Shown one piece after another: positions 3,841-11,329 of a DNA stretch of 64,000 nt (its first letter is position 1; every line of letters begins with the position of its first letter). A program made the translations under genes and the position numbers. The DNA is from an uncultured Solirubrobacterales bacterium (GTDB lineage: Bacteria > Actinomycetota > Thermoleophilia > Solirubrobacterales > Solirubrobacteraceae), in contig CAVRRJ010000004.1 in NCBI GenBank assembly GCA_963723585.1, positions 88,591-152,590 of the forward strand, read 5' to 3'. A model generated the notes under the pieces. It searched no databases. It saw only the letters and a program-made list of their open reading frames with translations, and had not been told where the DNA came from.

Positions 3841-5070
3841 ATGAAGCGGTGCGTGATCGGTGCGTTGTCCGGGGTCGTGATCGCATGCGCGTTCAGCTCT
3901 GCGGCGATGGCGGATTCGGGTCTGACGCTGTCGGCGTCGTTTGACCAGAGCACAGCCACGATCGGCAGCACGGACCCGTTGACGTTCACGATCACCGTGC
4001 CTTCCGGGGGCACCGGCGTGGCTGATCTCGGGTTGTCGGCCTCATTTCCCGCAGGTCTGAACGTCGCTGCCGGGACGAGCTCAGCGTGCGGCGGCACTGT
4101 GACCACGACGCCCGCACCCCCGCCCCCCGTACCCGTGCCTGGAGACAGCACCATGCCTGAGATTCAGCTCGCCGGGGCATCCGTTGGCGCAGGAGGGACC
4201 TGTAGCTTCTCCGTGCCCGTGCTCGTCCAGAGCGCCGGGACGCTGATCGTGAACGCCGAACCGCCGACGACCGGGGCGTACACAGAGGTGGGCAACGGGA
4301 CGAACGCGTCGGTGACGGTGCCGGCGACCGCCTCGCCGGCGACCGTCACTAGCTCCTTCTCGCCCGCCACGATCGACGCGAACGGCACGACGGCCTGGAC
4401 GGTGTCGATCACCAACCCGAACACGTCCACCACCCTGACCGATGTACGGTTCTACACGTCGCTCATCCTCACCCCCAGCTACGTCTTCCTGTGGCCGGAG
4501 GCGATCACGGGCGACAACTGCGCAGGAAACGGCAACATTGCCCCCGGCCATATCACCGAGCTCATCCCGAACGTCAACTACGGTGGCGGGACGCTGGCGC
4601 CGGGCGCGACGTGCACGATCACGGTCACCATGACCCCCGGCGACACCGCGTTCGACGATCTCCCGGTTCCGGTTACGGTCATGTCGAACGAGGGCGGGGC
4701 CAGCGCGGTCTCCACTGCAACGTTCACCTCGCTCGCACCGCCAACGCCTGTCCCCTCCCCGGTGCCGCCGTCTAACGCGTTCACCCACGGCAAGCCGAAG
4801 GTGGCAGCAAACGGCGTTATCACCGAGGTGCTGCGACTCCCCGGCAAGGGCACAGTCGGACTCCGCGAGAGCTGGCACGGCAAGCTCATCGCCCACATCC
4901 AGAAATCCGTCATGACGGGCAAGAAGCTGACGATCAAGCTCGTGCCGAGCGGAGCGATCCGCCGCTCCCTTAAGTCTCACCACGGCACGAAACTGAAGCT
5001 ATCGATGGTCTATACGCCGGCCGGCGGCACGCCCCGCAGCGTCACGCTCACCGCGCGCACCCCGCGTTGA
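3841..5070 (+). CDS. Secreted Thr/Gly-rich protein with two DUF11-like beta-sandwich repeats and a basic C-terminal domain
   Basis: RBS AGGGGAG, signal peptide ending AMA-D, repeated xAxGxTCx motifs, Pro-rich linker. Confidence 0.75.
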   Translation: MKRCVIGALSGVVIACAFSSAAMADSGLTLSASFDQSTATIGSTDPLTFTITVPSGGTGVADLGLSASFPAGLNVAAGTSSACGGTVTTTPAPPPPVPVPGDSTMPEIQLAGASVGAGGTCSFSVPVLVQSAGTLIVNAEPPTTGAYTEVGNGTNASVTVPATASPATVTSSFSPATIDANGTTAWTVSITNPNTSTTLTDVRFYTSLILTPSYVFLWPEAITGDNCAGNGNIAPGHITELIPNVNYGGGTLAPGATCTITVTMTPGDTAFDDLPVPVTVMSNEGGASAVSTATFTSLAPPTPVPSPVPPSNAFTHGKPKVAANGVITEVLRLPGKGTVGLRESWHGKLIAHIQKSVMTGKKLTIKLVPSGAIRRSLKSHHGTKLKLSMVYTPAGGTPRSVTLTARTPR

Positions 5071-5376
5071 CCCACCGCACACCGCGCCACGGCCTCGCCG
5101 CGGACGATCGCGTGCATCGGCGCAACATCGTGGACTAGAGGATCGTGTCGGCGACCCTTCCTCACTTCCGTCGCTCGCGATAAACGCTTCACCCGGGGAA
5201 CGCTCCCGCTGGATGGTGCCGGCGCGCTCGACGTTCAGCGTGTCCCTTCGGACGATCATGAAGTCATCGTGCTCGCGCCTGCTCGGTCGGCTGAGCGGCC
5301 ACCCGCTTTGAGCAGATCGGGCCGCCCGAGTCGCGTCTCGCTCACTTCCGCAATCATGTCTGAAGGGTCCGAGAGG

Positions 5377-5550
5377 ATGACCGATGAGTTTCTGACCGTG
5401 TTTGAGGTTGCAAAGCAGCTGAAGGTCAACCAACAAACAGTGCACAACTGGATCGATCGCGGTGAACTCATCGGCGTTCGCCTGAGTTCGCGCTGAGTGC
5501 GGGTGCTCCGCAGCGAATTGGACCGTTTCATTCGCGATAGCTCGACGGCA
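5377..5550 (+). pseudogene. Excisionase-family helix-turn-helix gene interrupted by in-frame TGA (5494-5496)
   Basis: MTDEFLTVFEVAKQLKVNQQTVHNWIDRGELIGVRLSSR*VRVLRSELDRFI; 3' end approximate. Confidence 0.8.
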
Positions 5551-5853
5551 AACGTTCCCGCCGCGAGTCTCATCGGGTTCATCGGACATACTTTGAGCTT
5601 ATCTGAGACCATCGTGGGTTCCGTCTGGCGGGCCAACTCACACTGGATGGTGCAGTTCTGGCTGCGGGCTTCTCGACAGCCGTCGTCACTCGTCAGTCGT
5701 CCGTCGCTTGGCCGCGATCACCGCGTAGCTCGCTGCGAACTTCCTCGAGTGGTCGGCTCGCCGCAGCGTGGTGCTGTGACTGCTGGTTGAGGTCTTGTCT
5801 GAGCGCTTCGGCGCGCTCGGAGCCTAGAACGGCCGTTTTGCGGGAGTTTACAG

Positions 5854-5926
<73 letters not shown>

Positions 5927-6013
5927 GTTCGCGCAGCGTAGCGGCTCGGCCGCCCTGGCGGCCCTCGGTCTCCGCCCGGGTCGGGGCCTCCGCCGGCGCC
6001 CGGATGGCGGAGG

Positions 6014-7313
6014 TCAGCCGCCGTAGGCGGCGTGGAGCAGAGCGGCCATGGCCGGAGCGCTGGACGGGCCGATCGGAGCGCCGCTCGAGTCGGCGAACCC
6101 GATCTCGAGGTGTGGTCCGGTCGAGATGCCGACGTCCCCGTAACCGACCTCGGAGATGACCTGGCCCCGGCTCACATGGGCGCCGACGGGGGTCCAGTTC
6201 CCGGGCCCGGCATGCCCGTAGTAGACGTAGTCATAGCCCGACAGGGAGCTGTCGCAGTGGATCACTGGAGCAGATGGGCCGAAGCCCCCGATTCCGTGCT
6301 GGACGATCGTTCCGGAGCAGACGGCATATTCGGCGGTGCCGCCCGGCGCCGAGATGTCAACCCCGTCGTCGAGTGACCAGGTGCTCGGGGGCGAGGCCGC
6401 GCTGGTGGGAAGCGGGAAGGTGAAGCCGCCACCACTCGACGGCGCGGGAGCGGGCGCGCTCCCTGCCGAGCCGCCCGATGACCCGGAGCTCGCGGCCGGG
6501 GCGGAGGAATGTACCGCAGCGGCCCGCGCCGCGCGGGCCGCCGCAGCTACCTGGGCCGCCTCGAGGTGAACGAGCTCCGCGTGCAGACCGGCGACGGACT
6601 GGCGCGCCAAGGCGAGCCTACCGGCCCTTCCGTTACGGACCCGCGTAGCCGATAGCTCCTCGGAGACGAGCGTCAGGCGCGTGCGGTCCACGCTGTTGCG
6701 CTCGTAGAGCACCGCGGTGGTGAGCTGCTGCTGGCGCTCTGAAAACGCCCCCAGGCGAGTTGCCTGGGCCGCCACCGCGCGACGGGCGGCCTTCACCTGA
6801 CCGACGATCCGGGTGTCCTGGTTGCCCACCCTTTCAGCGAAGGCCAGCTGCTCGAGCAGGTTCCTGAACCCGGTGGCCTCGAGCACGACGCTGACCAGGT
6901 CTGGGCGGTCGGCCTCGTAGCTACCGATTAGCTGCTGGGAGAGCACCGCCTCGGTCGTGAGTCTGGGCGGCCTCTAGGCGGACGAGCCGCGCCCGGGCGG
7001 TGCTCAGCTGAGCTTGCAGCCTCAGGAGCTGAGCCCGCTTGACGTTCAAATCGGCCTGGAGCCGATCGACCTGCCGCTGGAGCGAGGAGACGCTCTGGCC
7101 AAGGCGCGCGACGTTGCGGCTCGCTGCGCCGACCCCTCCGGCCAACGCTGAGACGCGGCCCTGACCAGCGGCGATCCGCTGCCGCAGTTTCCCGGTGGTG
7201 GCCGCCCTGGCCCGCGGCGGCCCGGCCGCGAGCGGCACCGCGACGAGCAGGGCCACCAAGCCGAGCAGGAGTAGGGCGGCCGCACGGTTCAGTGGCGTCT
7301 TGGCGAGGAGCAT
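6014..7313 (-). CDS. Secreted coiled-coil plus M23-family peptidoglycan peptidase (frameshift near 6950)
   Basis: Signal peptide and coiled coil in one frame; DxGVD, YYGH, STGPHL M23 motifs in the next frame. Confidence 0.8.
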
Positions 7314-7476
7314 CGGTGATCTGCTCGAACCGTGTGCGCCGGGCAGCCGCGAGGCGCGGGCCGCGCAGCCGCGGGGCTCGGACCGCGGTGACGCTAACAG
7401 TGGGGCCGGTTTCGGGGGACGTAGCCGGAGCATCTGCAAGGAAACCTGCAAGAGAAGGGAAATGGTCCTCCTCTGC

Positions 7477-8316
7477 TCATGGGCGCGAGATCGATACCAC
7501 CGTGAGGTCGCGCGGGGCCCCCTCGGCGCGCAGGCGCTTGGCCCGGCCGGCCTGCAGGTCGCCGAGCTCGAGGCGGGCGAGGAGCGGGTCGGAGACCAGG
7601 ACCTGGTCGGCCTTGGCCGCCGCGCCAACCCGGGCGGCGACGTTCACGTCGACCCCGAGATAGTCCCCGCCGAGCTTGCGCGGAGAGCCCCAGTGGATCC
7701 CCGCGCGCATCCGCGGAGTATGACCATCGAGGTCGATACCGGCGATCGCGTCCTGGGCGTCGAGGGCAGCGTCCACGGCCGGCCGGGGGGCCAGGAAGGT
7801 GGCCATGATCCCGTCGCCCAGGCGTTTGACGATCCGCCCGTCTCGCCCGGCCACCGCCGCCTCGAGCGCCGTGCCGACCCGGCGCAGGAGCTCCAGCGTG
7901 GCCGCGTCGCCGGCCCGCAGAGCCCAGCTCGAGAACCCGACCAGGTCGGTGAACAGGATGGCCAGCTCCTGATCCCCGCGTCCGCGTCCAGTGGCCTCCG
8001 ACAGCGACTGCCAGACCTGGAGACCGGCCAGGCCGAGCTCCTGGCTCACGCTGCGGCGGTCGGGCTGCAGGGCGGATACCCCGCGGGCCACGATCTCGGC
8101 CGGGTGGGTTCCGGCGGTCGACAGCGCGTCGCCGAAGCGCTCATCGCCGGGAAGGCTGCGCCGCAGCCGCTCGGCCGCGGTCAGCAGCCTGGGCTGGGTG
8201 TCGACCCCGACCGCGAAGCGCCGCAGCCGGCGTCGGCGGCCGTCCCGCTGATCTGATTCGGGCGGCGGATCAGGGCGATCGAGTTCGCCGGGGGGCTCGG
8301 GTTCGCCGGCTGTCAT
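7477..8316 (-). CDS. Class III adenylate/guanylate cyclase domain protein
   Basis: ILFTDLVGFS, VKRLGDG, DYLGVDVNVAARV motifs. Confidence 0.9.
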   Translation of the reverse strand: MTAGEPEPPGELDRPDPPPESDQRDGRRRRLRRFAVGVDTQPRLLTAAERLRRSLPGDERFGDALSTAGTHPAEIVARGVSALQPDRRSVSQELGLAGLQVWQSLSEATGRGRGDQELAILFTDLVGFSSWALRAGDAATLELLRRVGTALEAAVAGRDGRIVKRLGDGIMATFLAPRPAVDAALDAQDAIAGIDLDGHTPRMRAGIHWGSPRKLGGDYLGVDVNVAARVGAAAKADQVLVSDPLLARLELGDLQAGRAKRLRAEGAPRDLTVVSISRP

Positions 8317-8331
8317 GAGTGGGGTCACGGG

Positions 8332-8871
8332 TCATTCCAGACCCGGAATGGCGGGACCAGGATTCGAACCTGGGAAGGCAGAGCCAACGGGTTTACAGCC
8401 CGTCCCTTTTGACCGCTCAGGAATCCCGCCGAGCGCCGCCGAGTCTAGCGAGGCGACCCAGGCCGGCAGCGGTTGCCCGGGGTCGATTTCGTACTCCGCG
8501 TACTTGGGACCGCCGACGTCCAGGCGGGTCCCTCCGTCGACCGCAGCGGCAGGTATGAACCAGCGCCGGCCGTCGCCGACGAGGACGAACAGCTGGTCAT
8601 ATCGGGTCGGGTCCAGCCGCTTGACCACCCCGCTCCAGCTGCGGTTGCCCCCGCGCGTGCAGACAGCGACCGACCATCTGCCTTTGATGAACTGCGTCGT
8701 CGTCTTGACCTGGACGCGAACCAGTCCGTCGCCAAAGTCGGTGACCAGGTCGACGTCCGGGCTGTGCCCGATGGGCAGGAAGACCGGCCAGCCGAGCGCC
8801 ATCAGCCAGACGATGGCCGACCGTTCGCCCAGGTCCCCCTGCCCCCTTGGATCCCGCTTGAAAGTGGTCAT
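8332..8871 (-). CDS. Group I intron-type PD-(D/E)XK endonuclease (I-Ssp6803I-like), overlapping tRNA-Tyr
   Basis: GDLGE...VFLP...PDVDLV...RVQVKT motifs; -10 TACGGT 6 nt before the ATG. Confidence 0.85.
   Translation of the reverse strand: MTTFKRDPRGQGDLGERSAIVWLMALGWPVFLPIGHSPDVDLVTDFGDGLVRVQVKTTTQFIKGRWSVAVCTRGGNRSWSGVVKRLDPTRYDQLFVLVGDGRRWFIPAAAVDGGTRLDVGGPKYAEYEIDPGQPLPAWVASLDSAALGGIPERSKGTGCKPVGSAFPGSNPGPAIPGLE
8349..8430 (-). tRNA. tRNA-Tyr(GTA)
   Basis: GGCGGGATTCCTGAGCGGTCAAAAGGGACGGGCTGTAAACCCGTTGGCTCTGCCTTCCCAGGTTCGAATCCTGGTCCCGCCA; long variable arm; no intron. Confidence 0.97.
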
Positions 8872-8931
8872 GGGCCGACCGTAGAGAGCGGCCCGGCGTT
8901 CGTTACAAAGCGTTCGCCCCGGGCTGCGCGA

Positions 8932-10077
8932 CTACGAAGCGTCGCGCAGGCGCTGGGCTTCGGGCAGCGCCTCGAGCTTCTTCAGCGTGTGGTTCTCGAT
9001 CTGGCGGATCCGCTCACGGGTGACGTTGAAGGCGCGGCCGACCTCCTCGAGCGTGTAGGGCCGCTCGCCAGTCAGGCCGAAGCGCATCTGGATCACCTCG
9101 CGCTCGCGCTCGGGGAGCGCCGCCAGGGCGCGCAGGAGATTCTCCCGGCGCAGGTGCTCGGAAGCCAGCTCGAAGGGCGACTCGGCGCTCTGGTCCTCGA
9201 CGAAGTCCCCCAGCGCGGAGTCGTCCTCCTCACCGACCGGCTTCTCTAAAGAAATGGGCTGCTGGGCCATGCGCAGGATGTCGCGGACCTCGCGCACCGT
9301 GGTCTCGAGCTCGGCGGCGATCTCCTGCGGCGTCGGCTCGCGTCCCAGCTGCTGGACGAGCTGGCGCTCGACGTGGACGACCTTGTTCAGCTTCTCGACC
9401 ATGTGGACGGGAATGCGGATCGTGCGGCCCTTGTCGGCGATCGCGCGCGTAACCGCCTGGCGGATCCACCAGGTGGCGTAGGTGGAGAACTTGTAGCCGC
9501 GGCGATAGTCGAATTTCTCCACCGCCCGGATGAGCCCCATCGAGCCCTCCTGGATCAGGTCCAAAAACGTGAGGCCGCGGCCCAGGTAGGACTTGGCGAT
9601 CGAGACGACGAGGCGCAGGTTGGCCTCGATCATCTGCTGCTTGGCCAGCATGTCGCCGCGCTCAATGCGCCGGGCCAGGAGGACCTCCTGCTCGGCGGTG
9701 AGCAGGTTCACGCGCCCGATGGAGCGCAGGTAGAGGCGCAGCGAATCGAGACTCGGCTCCACGGTCAGATCGAGTTCCACCTTCTTGCGTTGCTCCGGGT
9801 CGGGAGCCGCCGCCCGCTGAGCCCCGGCCTCCACACTGCCGGCCTCGGAGCGTGACGGACGACCGTCGGACTCGACGACGTCGATCCCGTGCTCGTCGAG
9901 ATAGGCGTGCAACTCCTGCACCTGCTCCTTGGTGACCTCGGCCTCCTCCAGACAACCCTCGATCTGGGTAAAGGTGAGGAAGCCTCGCTCCTGCCCTTCG
10001 GCGATCAGTCCGCGCAGTTCGTCCGTCTCGGCGATCGGCGCGTCATCGCTCAACAGAACGATCTCATCAACGCTCAC
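8932..10077 (-). CDS. RpoD/SigA-family sigma-70 factor
   Basis: Region 1.1-like N-terminus, [37 protein letters not shown]...TRERIRQIE. Confidence 0.93.
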
Positions 10078-10290
10078 AGCCCCTGAGCTCCTCCGCTTGC
10101 GGATCTAGAGCACCCCCGATATCCATCGGGAGCCTCCCTCGTGACTCCTGATACGACCGTGAGGATTGATACCACAATCCGGGGCGGGCGCGAAACGCGC
10201 CTATGCAGGCCAACCGAGTGACCGCTCTACTCTTTGTCGCGAGCCGGCTGCACTCAGTGGCCGCAGACGTGGACCCGAAGGCGGAGTGAG

Positions 10291-11329
10291 ATGACCGACA
10301 GCCCCCCATCCCCGAGCACGCTGATCGACGTGCAGGCGCGAACCCCGGCGCTGGCCCTGAGCCTGTCCCGCGTCGGCGTCACCGGTGTCGAGAAGGTCAT
10401 TCGCCTGCGCCAGAACGGGGCCACCGCCACACCGACGAGTGGCGATCCGTCGGGAGGTCAGCAGCTGTTCTCGGCCCGTTCGAGTGCGTGGTCGAGCTCG
10501 GGTCCGAACCAGAAGGGCGCCCACATGTCGCGCTTCGAGGAGGTGGTCAACGAGGCGATCGGCGAGGTGGTGCTCGGCGACTCCACCTTCAAGGTGGAAA
10601 CGCTGGCCGAGCACATCGCCCAGCTGGTCCGCGACCGCCAGGGCGCGCGACGCGCCGAGGTCAGCGTCGAGGCTCGCTTCCCCGAGCACAAGCCCGCGCC
10701 GGTGTCGGGGGTCATCACCCAGGAGATGTACACGCTCCACGGGTGCGCGGTGGCCACCGAGCTCGGCACTCGGCGCCTCGTCGGCGTCACCGCTCAGGGG
10801 ATCACGGCCTGCCCGTGCGCCCAGGAGCTGGTCGCCGGCTCAGGCCCGGGAGCGGCTGCTGGAGGAGGGCTTTACCGGCGATGAGATCGAGCGGATCCTC
10901 GAGGCCGTCCCGGTGGCTACCCACAACCAGCGCGGTCTCGGCACGCTGCACGTCGGTTGCCCCGAGGACTGTGACGACGAGATCGACGCCGCCCTGCTCC
11001 TGGAGATCGTCGAGCAGTCGATGTCCTCGGAGATCTACGAGCTGATGAAGCGCACCGACGAGGCCCACGTGGTGGAGAAGGCCCACCGCCGCCCTCGCTT
11101 TGTCGAGGACTGCGTGCGCGAGATGGTTCGTGGGGTCATCGAGCGGCTGCCCCAGCTCGACGACCGGGCCTTCGTCTCCGCGCGCCAGGTCAACCTGGAG
11201 ACGATCCACCAGCACAACGTCGTCGCCGAGCGCTTCGGCACTTTGAAGGAGATTCGCGAGGAGCTTCGCAGCGCTACGCCGACTCCGGTTCACACCGGCC
11301 GCAGCGCCTGGCTTCACGCCACCGACTAG
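10291..11329 (+). CDS. GTP cyclohydrolase FolE2/MptA family (frameshifts near 10480-10500 and 10840)
   Basis: QKGAHMSRF, TACPCA, THNQRG, LMKRTDE, PRFVED, ETIHQHN motifs across frames. Confidence 0.88.

Follow-up and report, generated by a model that had tools for sequence, protein, structure and literature searches.

A free-standing I-Ssp6803I-like nuclease gene overlapping tRNA-Tyr in Solirubrobacteraceae: probable intron-less homing linked to recoding of the anticodon stem

Why does an open reading frame for a putative nuclease run straight through an intact tRNA gene, and how would such an enzyme spare the gene that it overlaps? The window analysed here (64,000 nucleotides from an uncultured Solirubrobacterales bacterium) holds a 179-aa ORF on the minus strand (8332-8871) that starts at an ATG and ends at a TGA at 8332-8334; the 82 nt of tRNA-Tyr(GTA), on the same strand, account for about 27 of its codons. 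That this ORF reads through a whole, intron-less tRNA-Tyr gene was proposed in the initial annotation and is confirmed by the ORF call, ARAGORN and Rfam. Named relatives of the nuclease come from Solirubrobacteraceae and other Thermoleophilia, and the assembly, which is 74% complete, yielded one tRNA-Tyr and one PF11645 match, both in the window. The features of the locus are as follows.

8932-10077, minus strand: RpoD-like sigma-70 gene, the upstream flank in many filled and empty alleles
8903-8908, minus strand: possible -35 element TTGTAA, of putative function, also in relatives L001, L004 and L253
8878-8883, minus strand: probable nuclease -10 box TACGGT, 6 nt before the ATG, in leaderless geometry
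8461-8871, minus strand: nuclease core, codons 1-137, a PF11645 / I-Ssp6803I-like PD-(D/E)XK domain
8524-8526, minus strand: Arg116 codon, the strand position co-varying most with anticodon-stem base -4 across relatives
8332-8460, minus strand: read-through tail, codons 138-179 plus stop, crossing the tRNA promoter and the tRNA
8442-8447, minus strand: probable tRNA -10 box TAGACT, inside the nuclease ORF
8349-8430, minus strand: tRNA-Tyr(GTA), intact (ARAGORN; Rfam tRNA 57.6 bits)
8387-8403, minus strand: anticodon arm, stem ACGGG/CCCGT around the loop, the centre of the putative target region
about 8384-8406, minus strand: putative target region, by analogy with the 23-bp I-Ssp6803I site
7477-8328, minus strand: adenylate/guanylate cyclase-domain gene, the downstream flank, outside the element

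Elsewhere in the window, GC content falls to 58-62% at 5200-5926, just 3' of tRNA-Thr(GGT); a small ORF of HTH_17 (excisionase-like) type occupies about 5356-5496, and past it comes a DUF7933 protein; this is possibly what is left of an integrated element.

In the structural model, the nuclease core is shown to fold like I-Ssp6803I with its catalytic motif intact. The PF11645 match covers residues 9-73 (37.9 bits against a cut-off of 26.1), an NCBIfam search of the nuclease returned no match, and the core (about 137 aa) is modelled with a pLDDT of 87.7. The closest structure is that of I-Ssp6803I itself (2OST), which heads the Foldseek results (TM 0.74) and aligns over 124 residues in VIA-align (Z 14.5, rmsd 2.4; the next row scores 10.3). 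The catalytic residues D13, E16, D41, Q54 and K56 are all present, E16, D41 and K56 being invariant in 46 aligned sequences, and E16 aligns with the E11Q position of 2OST as given in an excerpt of the structural report (PMC2175346). A four-copy model scored 0.84 against 0.03 for the best control, with a pLDDT of 80 and agreement between runs in at least 66% of contacts; the mark applied is reached by 20 of 30 solved pairs and by 1 of 23 single chains, a calibration made with two copies only, and the predicted tetramer may reflect memory of 2OST. From strand alternation, high variability and absence from the predicted subunit interfaces, we infer that residues 60-69 and 116-118 are exposed and face the DNA. 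Residues 143-179 have a pLDDT below 50, although most of the 37 alignment rows share that tail.

The window's nuclease thus resembles I-Ssp6803I, encoded in a group I intron of the Synechocystis tRNA-fMet gene, in Pfam family, fold, catalytic motif and link to a tRNA; I-Ssp6803I acts as a tetramer, and the four-copy model suggests that the window's nuclease may do so too. Unlike I-Ssp6803I, with which it shares about 22% identity, it has no intron and precedes an intact tRNA-Tyr. Rfam found no group I intron family in 5000-11000, and identification as a group I intron-encoded endonuclease was rejected on these grounds; for such proteins, a database label like 'group I intron-associated' misleads. 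Homing endonucleases usually protect themselves through the intron, which splits the target. With no intron, self-protection cannot come from a split site, and the evidence below points to a whole tRNA with a rewritten stem.

The pairing with tRNA-Tyr extends well beyond this genome. We took 187 related loci (80 from genome contigs, 80 from metagenome contigs and 27 from a family search), 160 of them with an intact nuclease gene. tRNA-Tyr is adjacent in 180 of the 187, and six of the seven loci without it end within about 90 nt of the nuclease match; across the phylum, 31 of 32 other, more distant matches lie no more than 500 nt from a tRNA, so the association of homologues with tRNA genes holds. 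The gene is optional, with gain, decay and loss, and is poorly matched to the host phylogeny. Of 134 tRNA-Tyr matches in the family, 127 were analysed (one unpublished genome, two contig-end cuts, one unfetched locus and three second hits were left out); with two carrier loci added, these make 129, of which 17 are intact, 15 broken, 94 empty and 3 unclassified. This comparison of sigma-tRNA-Tyr loci with and without the ORF, suggested in the initial annotation, finds filled, decayed and empty alleles at the same place and upholds the description of an intron-less, patchy, tRNA-linked I-Ssp6803I-like endonuclease. A PF11645-type match, weak paralogues included, occurs in 35 of 151 family genomes. 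On a sigma tree of 117 rows there are 27 changes of carrier state, and nuclease distance barely follows sigma distance (rho 0.17, 73 loci). The tRNA body follows host sigma (rho 0.40) more than it follows the nuclease (0.19), so that long co-conversion is not evident. Relics of the gene's 3' end with the promoter persist at 4 clear and 2 marginal loci among the 105 classed as empty, and the idea that all empty alleles keep that end is wrong; the four clear relics all have variant stems (p 0.06 for all six).

Natural competence was considered as the transfer route and rejected: ComEC is present in 47 of 61 genomes, in both of the panels described below, does not track carriage, and was found in none of 4 genomes of the window's genus. 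Three genomes, G110 (L085, L246), G141 (L090, L217) and G103 (L098, L236), have two tRNA-Tyr loci each, with different stems and with the nuclease at one or both; duplication, a conversion intermediate or mixed bins could account for this. A tRNA-Tyr body of a very different type accompanies the nuclease at L070, L079 and L103, which are in distant genomes and include a family member whose nuclease is broken; this suggests replacement of the whole tRNA.

Anticodon-stem diversity follows the presence of the nuclease, which is the principal signal of this analysis and one that the initial annotation did not note. The 160 intact carriers have 42 forms of the tRNA-Tyr anticodon stem, with all five pairs kept in 159 of them, and the stems common family-wide, ACGGG and ACGGA, occur in six, the window included. 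In the 24 genera where no nuclease was found, ACGGG or ACGGA occupies 58 of 62 loci, there are five stems in total, and 2 of 17 multi-genome genera are polymorphic for the stem; the 20 genera with the nuclease have 30 stems at 67 loci, and 19 of 19 multi-genome genera are polymorphic. At sigma distances below 0.08, stem differences are 2.7 with the nuclease versus 0.0 without it (14 and 20 pairs), and at 0.08-0.12 they are 2.9 versus 0.3. Stems switch fast, being shared in 9 of 35 pairs at 80-90% protein identity. The carrier excess is smaller for the D stem and the variable arm, and the T and acceptor stems show the least of it; position by position, it falls in the anticodon stem and one D-stem pair, and the anticodon loop is invariant.

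Other tRNAs were compared in two panels of 30 genomes, which were picked by genus after the Tyr stems had been seen. Tyr itself has 22 stems in 30 in the carrier panel and 2 in 30 in the other, whereas Leu-TAG (6 stems in 24 versus 6 in 26) and Leu-CAA (19 in 24 versus 16 in 20) vary equally in the two; lineage-wide fast tRNA evolution is therefore rejected as the cause of the stem diversity. In the carrier panel, little variation is seen in Val-GAC (3 stems in 23), Cys (4 in 21) or Gly-GCC (1 in 13), and Thr-GGT has 2 stems in 30 carrier loci. tRNA-Leu(CAA) is hypervariable in stem, loop and arms in both panels (loci L381-L440). No hidden nuclease was found beside it, the shared neighbour being a membrane protein, and variable stems thus need no neighbouring nuclease; one guess is that this tRNA serves a rare codon and is under relaxed constraint.

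The association is also seen within genera. Across 18 mixed genera, the common stems are present in 4 of 42 carriers and in 18 of 45 empties (permutation p 0.001, or 0.025 without the window's genus). The window's genus is represented by 29 loci, that is, 26 of 30 returned from 61 genomes (three unpublished genomes and one without the tRNA were excluded) and three found earlier; ACGGA occurs there in none of 17 carriers and in 7 of 12 empties. Because ACGGA is common among the empties of the genus, the ACGGG of the window, one of the stems common across the family, counts as a variant in its own genus, differing from the commonest empty allele at the loop-closing pair. Phylogenetically independent pairs go in the same direction without reaching significance, at low power (median p 0.375 for 10 pairs; p 0.25 for 7 pairs). 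At one locus (L492, genome G466), the tRNA-Tyr is base for base that of the window, but the nuclease is a different one and stops before the tRNA.

Could the stems vary without being targeted at all? The gene might simply mark a recombination-prone spot, the stems varying through neutral paired drift and through imports from a range of donors. The variability of Leu-CAA with no nuclease beside it, and independent pairs that fall short of significance, would be expected on such a reading; it is harder to reconcile with Tyr stems that are almost fixed in genera lacking the nuclease when control tRNAs are equal, or with variation that is highest at the arm and follows the distance of neither the host nor the nuclease. 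A further difficulty for it is the co-variation of nuclease residue 116 with stem base -4, examined in 150 non-redundant carriers by clade-restricted permutation (family-wise p 0.010 and 0.017 over 460 tests), to which physical linkage could contribute. This is the one residue-base pair of those tested to survive correction, residue 67 with stem base -2 being borderline (p 0.06-0.20). Post hoc, G is found at -4 in 38 of 60 carriers with Gly116 versus 22 of 90 otherwise, and in 0 of 10 with Arg116; Arg116, again post hoc, is present in four of the six carriers with common stems, the window included. Exceptions to the Arg116 rule are G466 and probably P0003 (Gly116 with ACGGG). The sample of the window's genus, several genomes of which probably duplicate earlier loci, was kept out of the validation of the residue code.

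Phages provide what appear to be natural insertions. They commonly carry tRNA-Tyr, and relatives of the nuclease sit in lytic phages' own tRNA clusters; tblastn gave 46 distant phage records, and a search of viral contigs for close relatives gave none with a single query and one 40% match with an alignment. Acinetobacter phage CP14 has both flanks 99.7% identical to those of phage Ab_121 and, inside the resident tRNA-Tyr, a 490-bp insert composed of a distant nuclease relative (about 40%) and a foreign tRNA-Tyr; the 13 bp missing at the insertion are the anticodon arm of the resident tRNA-Tyr. As read from these sequences, the insertion fits a break at the anticodon arm, and the loss of exactly the arm again speaks against stems that are not targeted. 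In Vibrio phage Morian, the nuclease overlaps the 5' end of a replacement tRNA-Tyr-like gene at a site where Pylo, Wyman and Pontus carry another allele (both by eye). Nuclease and tRNA moved together in CP14 and in Morian. Two further phages favour the absence of targeting, their nucleases lying beside tRNA alleles with stems identical to those of some empty relatives: in Wilder the nuclease is between tRNA-Gly and tRNA-Lys, the stems of which equal those of the empty phage Faith1, and in Pylo it precedes a tRNA-Pro allele also present in Pontus and Morian. Wilder and Pylo may be ex-carriers or may have other targets. On the whole of this evidence, we regard variation without targeting as quite unlikely.

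Two details of the phage loci are worth recording. The 5' remnant of the broken tRNA-Tyr in CP14 (L475:1438-1475) has at its end, 5 nt ahead of the nuclease ATG, a purine-rich stretch that may be the ribosome-binding site of the nuclease. The tRNA-Tyr-like gene of Morian (L473:4368-4458) was missed by ARAGORN and by the annotation and overlaps the last codons of the nuclease.

The reading that we consider probable is intron-less homing at the anticodon arm of tRNA-Tyr, with immunity conferred by compensatory recoding of the stem and with cleavage as a prediction. In a rival tRNA-Tyr allele, the enzyme would cut the anticodon arm, and its own neighbour would be spared by an anticodon stem rewritten through paired base changes. 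The tetramer would read a roughly 23-bp pseudo-palindrome formed in the DNA by the anticodon stem-loop, as I-Ssp6803I does: in excerpts of the two reports, the latter has a pseudo-palindromic cognate site with the fMet anticodon loop at its centre (PMC2175346), and a tetramer of it reads 23 bp (PMC3384342). On an encounter between two alleles, repair of the break would use the carrier, and the nuclease gene would be copied together with the recoded arm. As targets are recoded, the specificity of the nuclease would shift through the exposed residues 60-69 and 116-118, and stems would keep turning over. Homing at the arm with paired recoding would explain the linkage, the patchiness, the decay, the stem pattern and the CP14 junction. 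If true, it would put rapid evolution of tRNA stems down to genetic conflict and not to translation, such genes could have given rise to intron-borne enzymes such as I-Ssp6803I, and the 42 stems and 160 enzymes collected here would form a table of natural variants for a very small nuclease with a long site.

The initial annotation had instead placed the target in the 5' flank of the tRNA. This is probably wrong: the excess variation is at the anticodon arm, CP14 lost its arm, and the I-Ssp6803I site described in the excerpt of PMC2175346 is at the arm. From sequence comparison and analogy, the anticodon arm is the more likely target. In the same proposal, homing to the flank was joined to a selected read-through, in which RNase P processing would make a non-stop mRNA and tmRNA would limit the enzyme. 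In keeping with it, the window's stop lies beyond the tRNA, tmRNA is present in the genome, and 83 of 160 intact relatives stop inside the tRNA (40) or beyond it (43), with one more running off. Yet 76 of the 160 stop before the tRNA, as do 7 of 9 intact copies in the window's genus. Because the coding frame has a stop ahead of the tRNA as often (76 of 160) as the two non-coding frames do (77 and 36), the read-through appears incidental, at chance level. The 5' flanks of empty alleles look unrelated by eye apart from the -10 box, and a flank target would not explain the recoding of stems. We find this combination highly improbable.

Considered by itself, the read-through was rejected as a selected feature, with no depletion of stops and no confident fold for the tail; a designed non-stop/tmRNA brake finds no support either, the tRNA being translated in all three frames among database homologues. 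Sequencing error was ruled out as its source: the same in-frame, tRNA-encoded tail is found in five close homologues from other assemblies (P0002, P0003, P0004, P0006 and P0010), and these homologous tails argue against the sequencing slip contemplated in the annotation, an indel whose correction would restore a stop before 8430. Cleavage by RNase P may leave a stop-less message in the window's copy as a side effect. The tail would be a by-product of a gene lying 45 nt from a tRNA in DNA of 70% GC. The 3' end of the gene would supply the tRNA promoter, which would hinder clean deletion, and the overlap would follow from the promoter sitting there. Promoters of host genes embedded in endonuclease ORFs are described for segG and others of T4 in an excerpt of PMC2988022.

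Both -10-like hexamers named in the annotation, TACGGT and TAGACT, are present at the positions listed above, but a strict scan for sigma-70 consensus promoters and terminators gave nothing and detected neither promoter. Of 160 carriers, 158 have a TAnnnT hexamer 15-28 nt ahead of the tRNA, a count made without a shuffle control. When aligned by eye, the nuclease -10 coincides with the -10 inside the LexA boxes of relatives. A perfect LexA box is found in 64 of 157 carriers versus 0.3 in shuffles, and the motif precedes genes that we take, from their N-termini, to be lexA, uvrA-like and dnaE2-like in the window's genome, where it is the real SOS box. Many relatives would thus be held under LexA; the window's copy has no LexA box, though in many relatives the box overlaps the nuclease -10.

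Control by LexA lends weight to host defence, in which the nuclease would, following DNA damage, cut the tRNA-Tyr genes or att sites of phages and integrative elements that enter the cell, and the host would recode its own stem to escape the nuclease. Phages do commonly carry tRNA-Tyr, and defence predicts the same recoding of stems as homing at the arm. It fits less well, however, with frequent decay and loss (15 broken versus 17 intact), with relatives residing in the tRNA clusters of lytic phages, with the missing LexA box at the window's copy, and with a sole PADLOC match that is to a weak homing-endonuclease model (26.4 bits). Defence is, in our judgement, unlikely. A LexA box also stands about 75 nt before tRNA-Gln(TTG) in the same genome (G000:C3:1984602-1984751), with no room for a gene between them; possibly a tRNA-linked nuclease since lost has left its promoter there.

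Parts of this picture are already known: the family to which the enzyme belongs, the anticodon arm as its target, and homing without an intron among the tRNA genes of phages, the last from reports seen here in excerpt (PMC2330249, PMC3984707). According to the first of these excerpts, SegB of T4 is free-standing, is encoded amid tRNA genes and, in relatives without it, cleaves within a tRNA gene. The window's nuclease is likewise free-standing and tRNA-linked, as are SegB and other Seg/Mob endonucleases in those accounts. In contrast, SegB is there a phage-borne GIY-YIG enzyme that reads a T-arm motif of many tRNAs, and the window's nuclease is a chromosomal PD-(D/E)XK enzyme beside the sole tRNA-Tyr. 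Its family also differs from SegB in that each subfamily keeps to a single tRNA type and many members have LexA control, and its putative site is about 75 nt from the end of the nuclease core. An excerpt of another study reports that changes in the anticodon loop of phage tRNAs evade tRNA-cutting defences (PMC10264068). Nuclease-driven change of tRNA sequence would be common to both systems; in that excerpt RNA is cleaved and loops change, whereas here it is the stem that changes around an invariant loop, and the nuclease belongs to a DNA endonuclease family. A literature search covering few subscription journals returned no title or abstract on free-standing chromosomal PF11645 genes and none on nuclease-linked stem recoding.

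How far does the arrangement extend? The tRNAs within 500 nt of the other matches in the phylum, two of which matches rest on the unpublished genomes G197 and G414, are Arg-TCT, Thr-TGT, Ala, Ser-TGA, Tyr and Pro-GGG. Subfamilies at loci L181-L210 and L107-L110 lie beside tRNA-Arg(TCT), Thr(TGT), Ala(GGC), Ala(TGC), Ser(TGA) and Pro(GGG) in same-strand, convergent and divergent orientations, with varied stems.

We put forward tentatively, at somewhat short of an even chance, that PF11645 nucleases are widespread intron-less gene drives on chromosomes and phages, each coupled to a single essential tRNA gene (Tyr, Ala, Arg, Thr, Ser and others), with the anticodon stem as a rewritable lock that co-evolves with the reading residues. 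If so, paired changes would keep the tRNA working while altering the DNA palindrome, in a continuing arms race, and selfish DNA would be a main force shaping the sequences of tRNA stems in these lineages. Hundreds of natural matched enzyme-site pairs would then exist on a 135-residue scaffold.

The pattern seen with tRNA-Tyr recurs in the tRNA-Ala(GGC) subfamily, where the common stem is present in 1 of 18 carriers and in 10 of 20 other loci, all picked by likeness to a query allele. In many family genomes (for example G016, G094, G010 and G025; loci L331-L351), comEC lies about 4-10 kb from tRNA-Ala(GGC).
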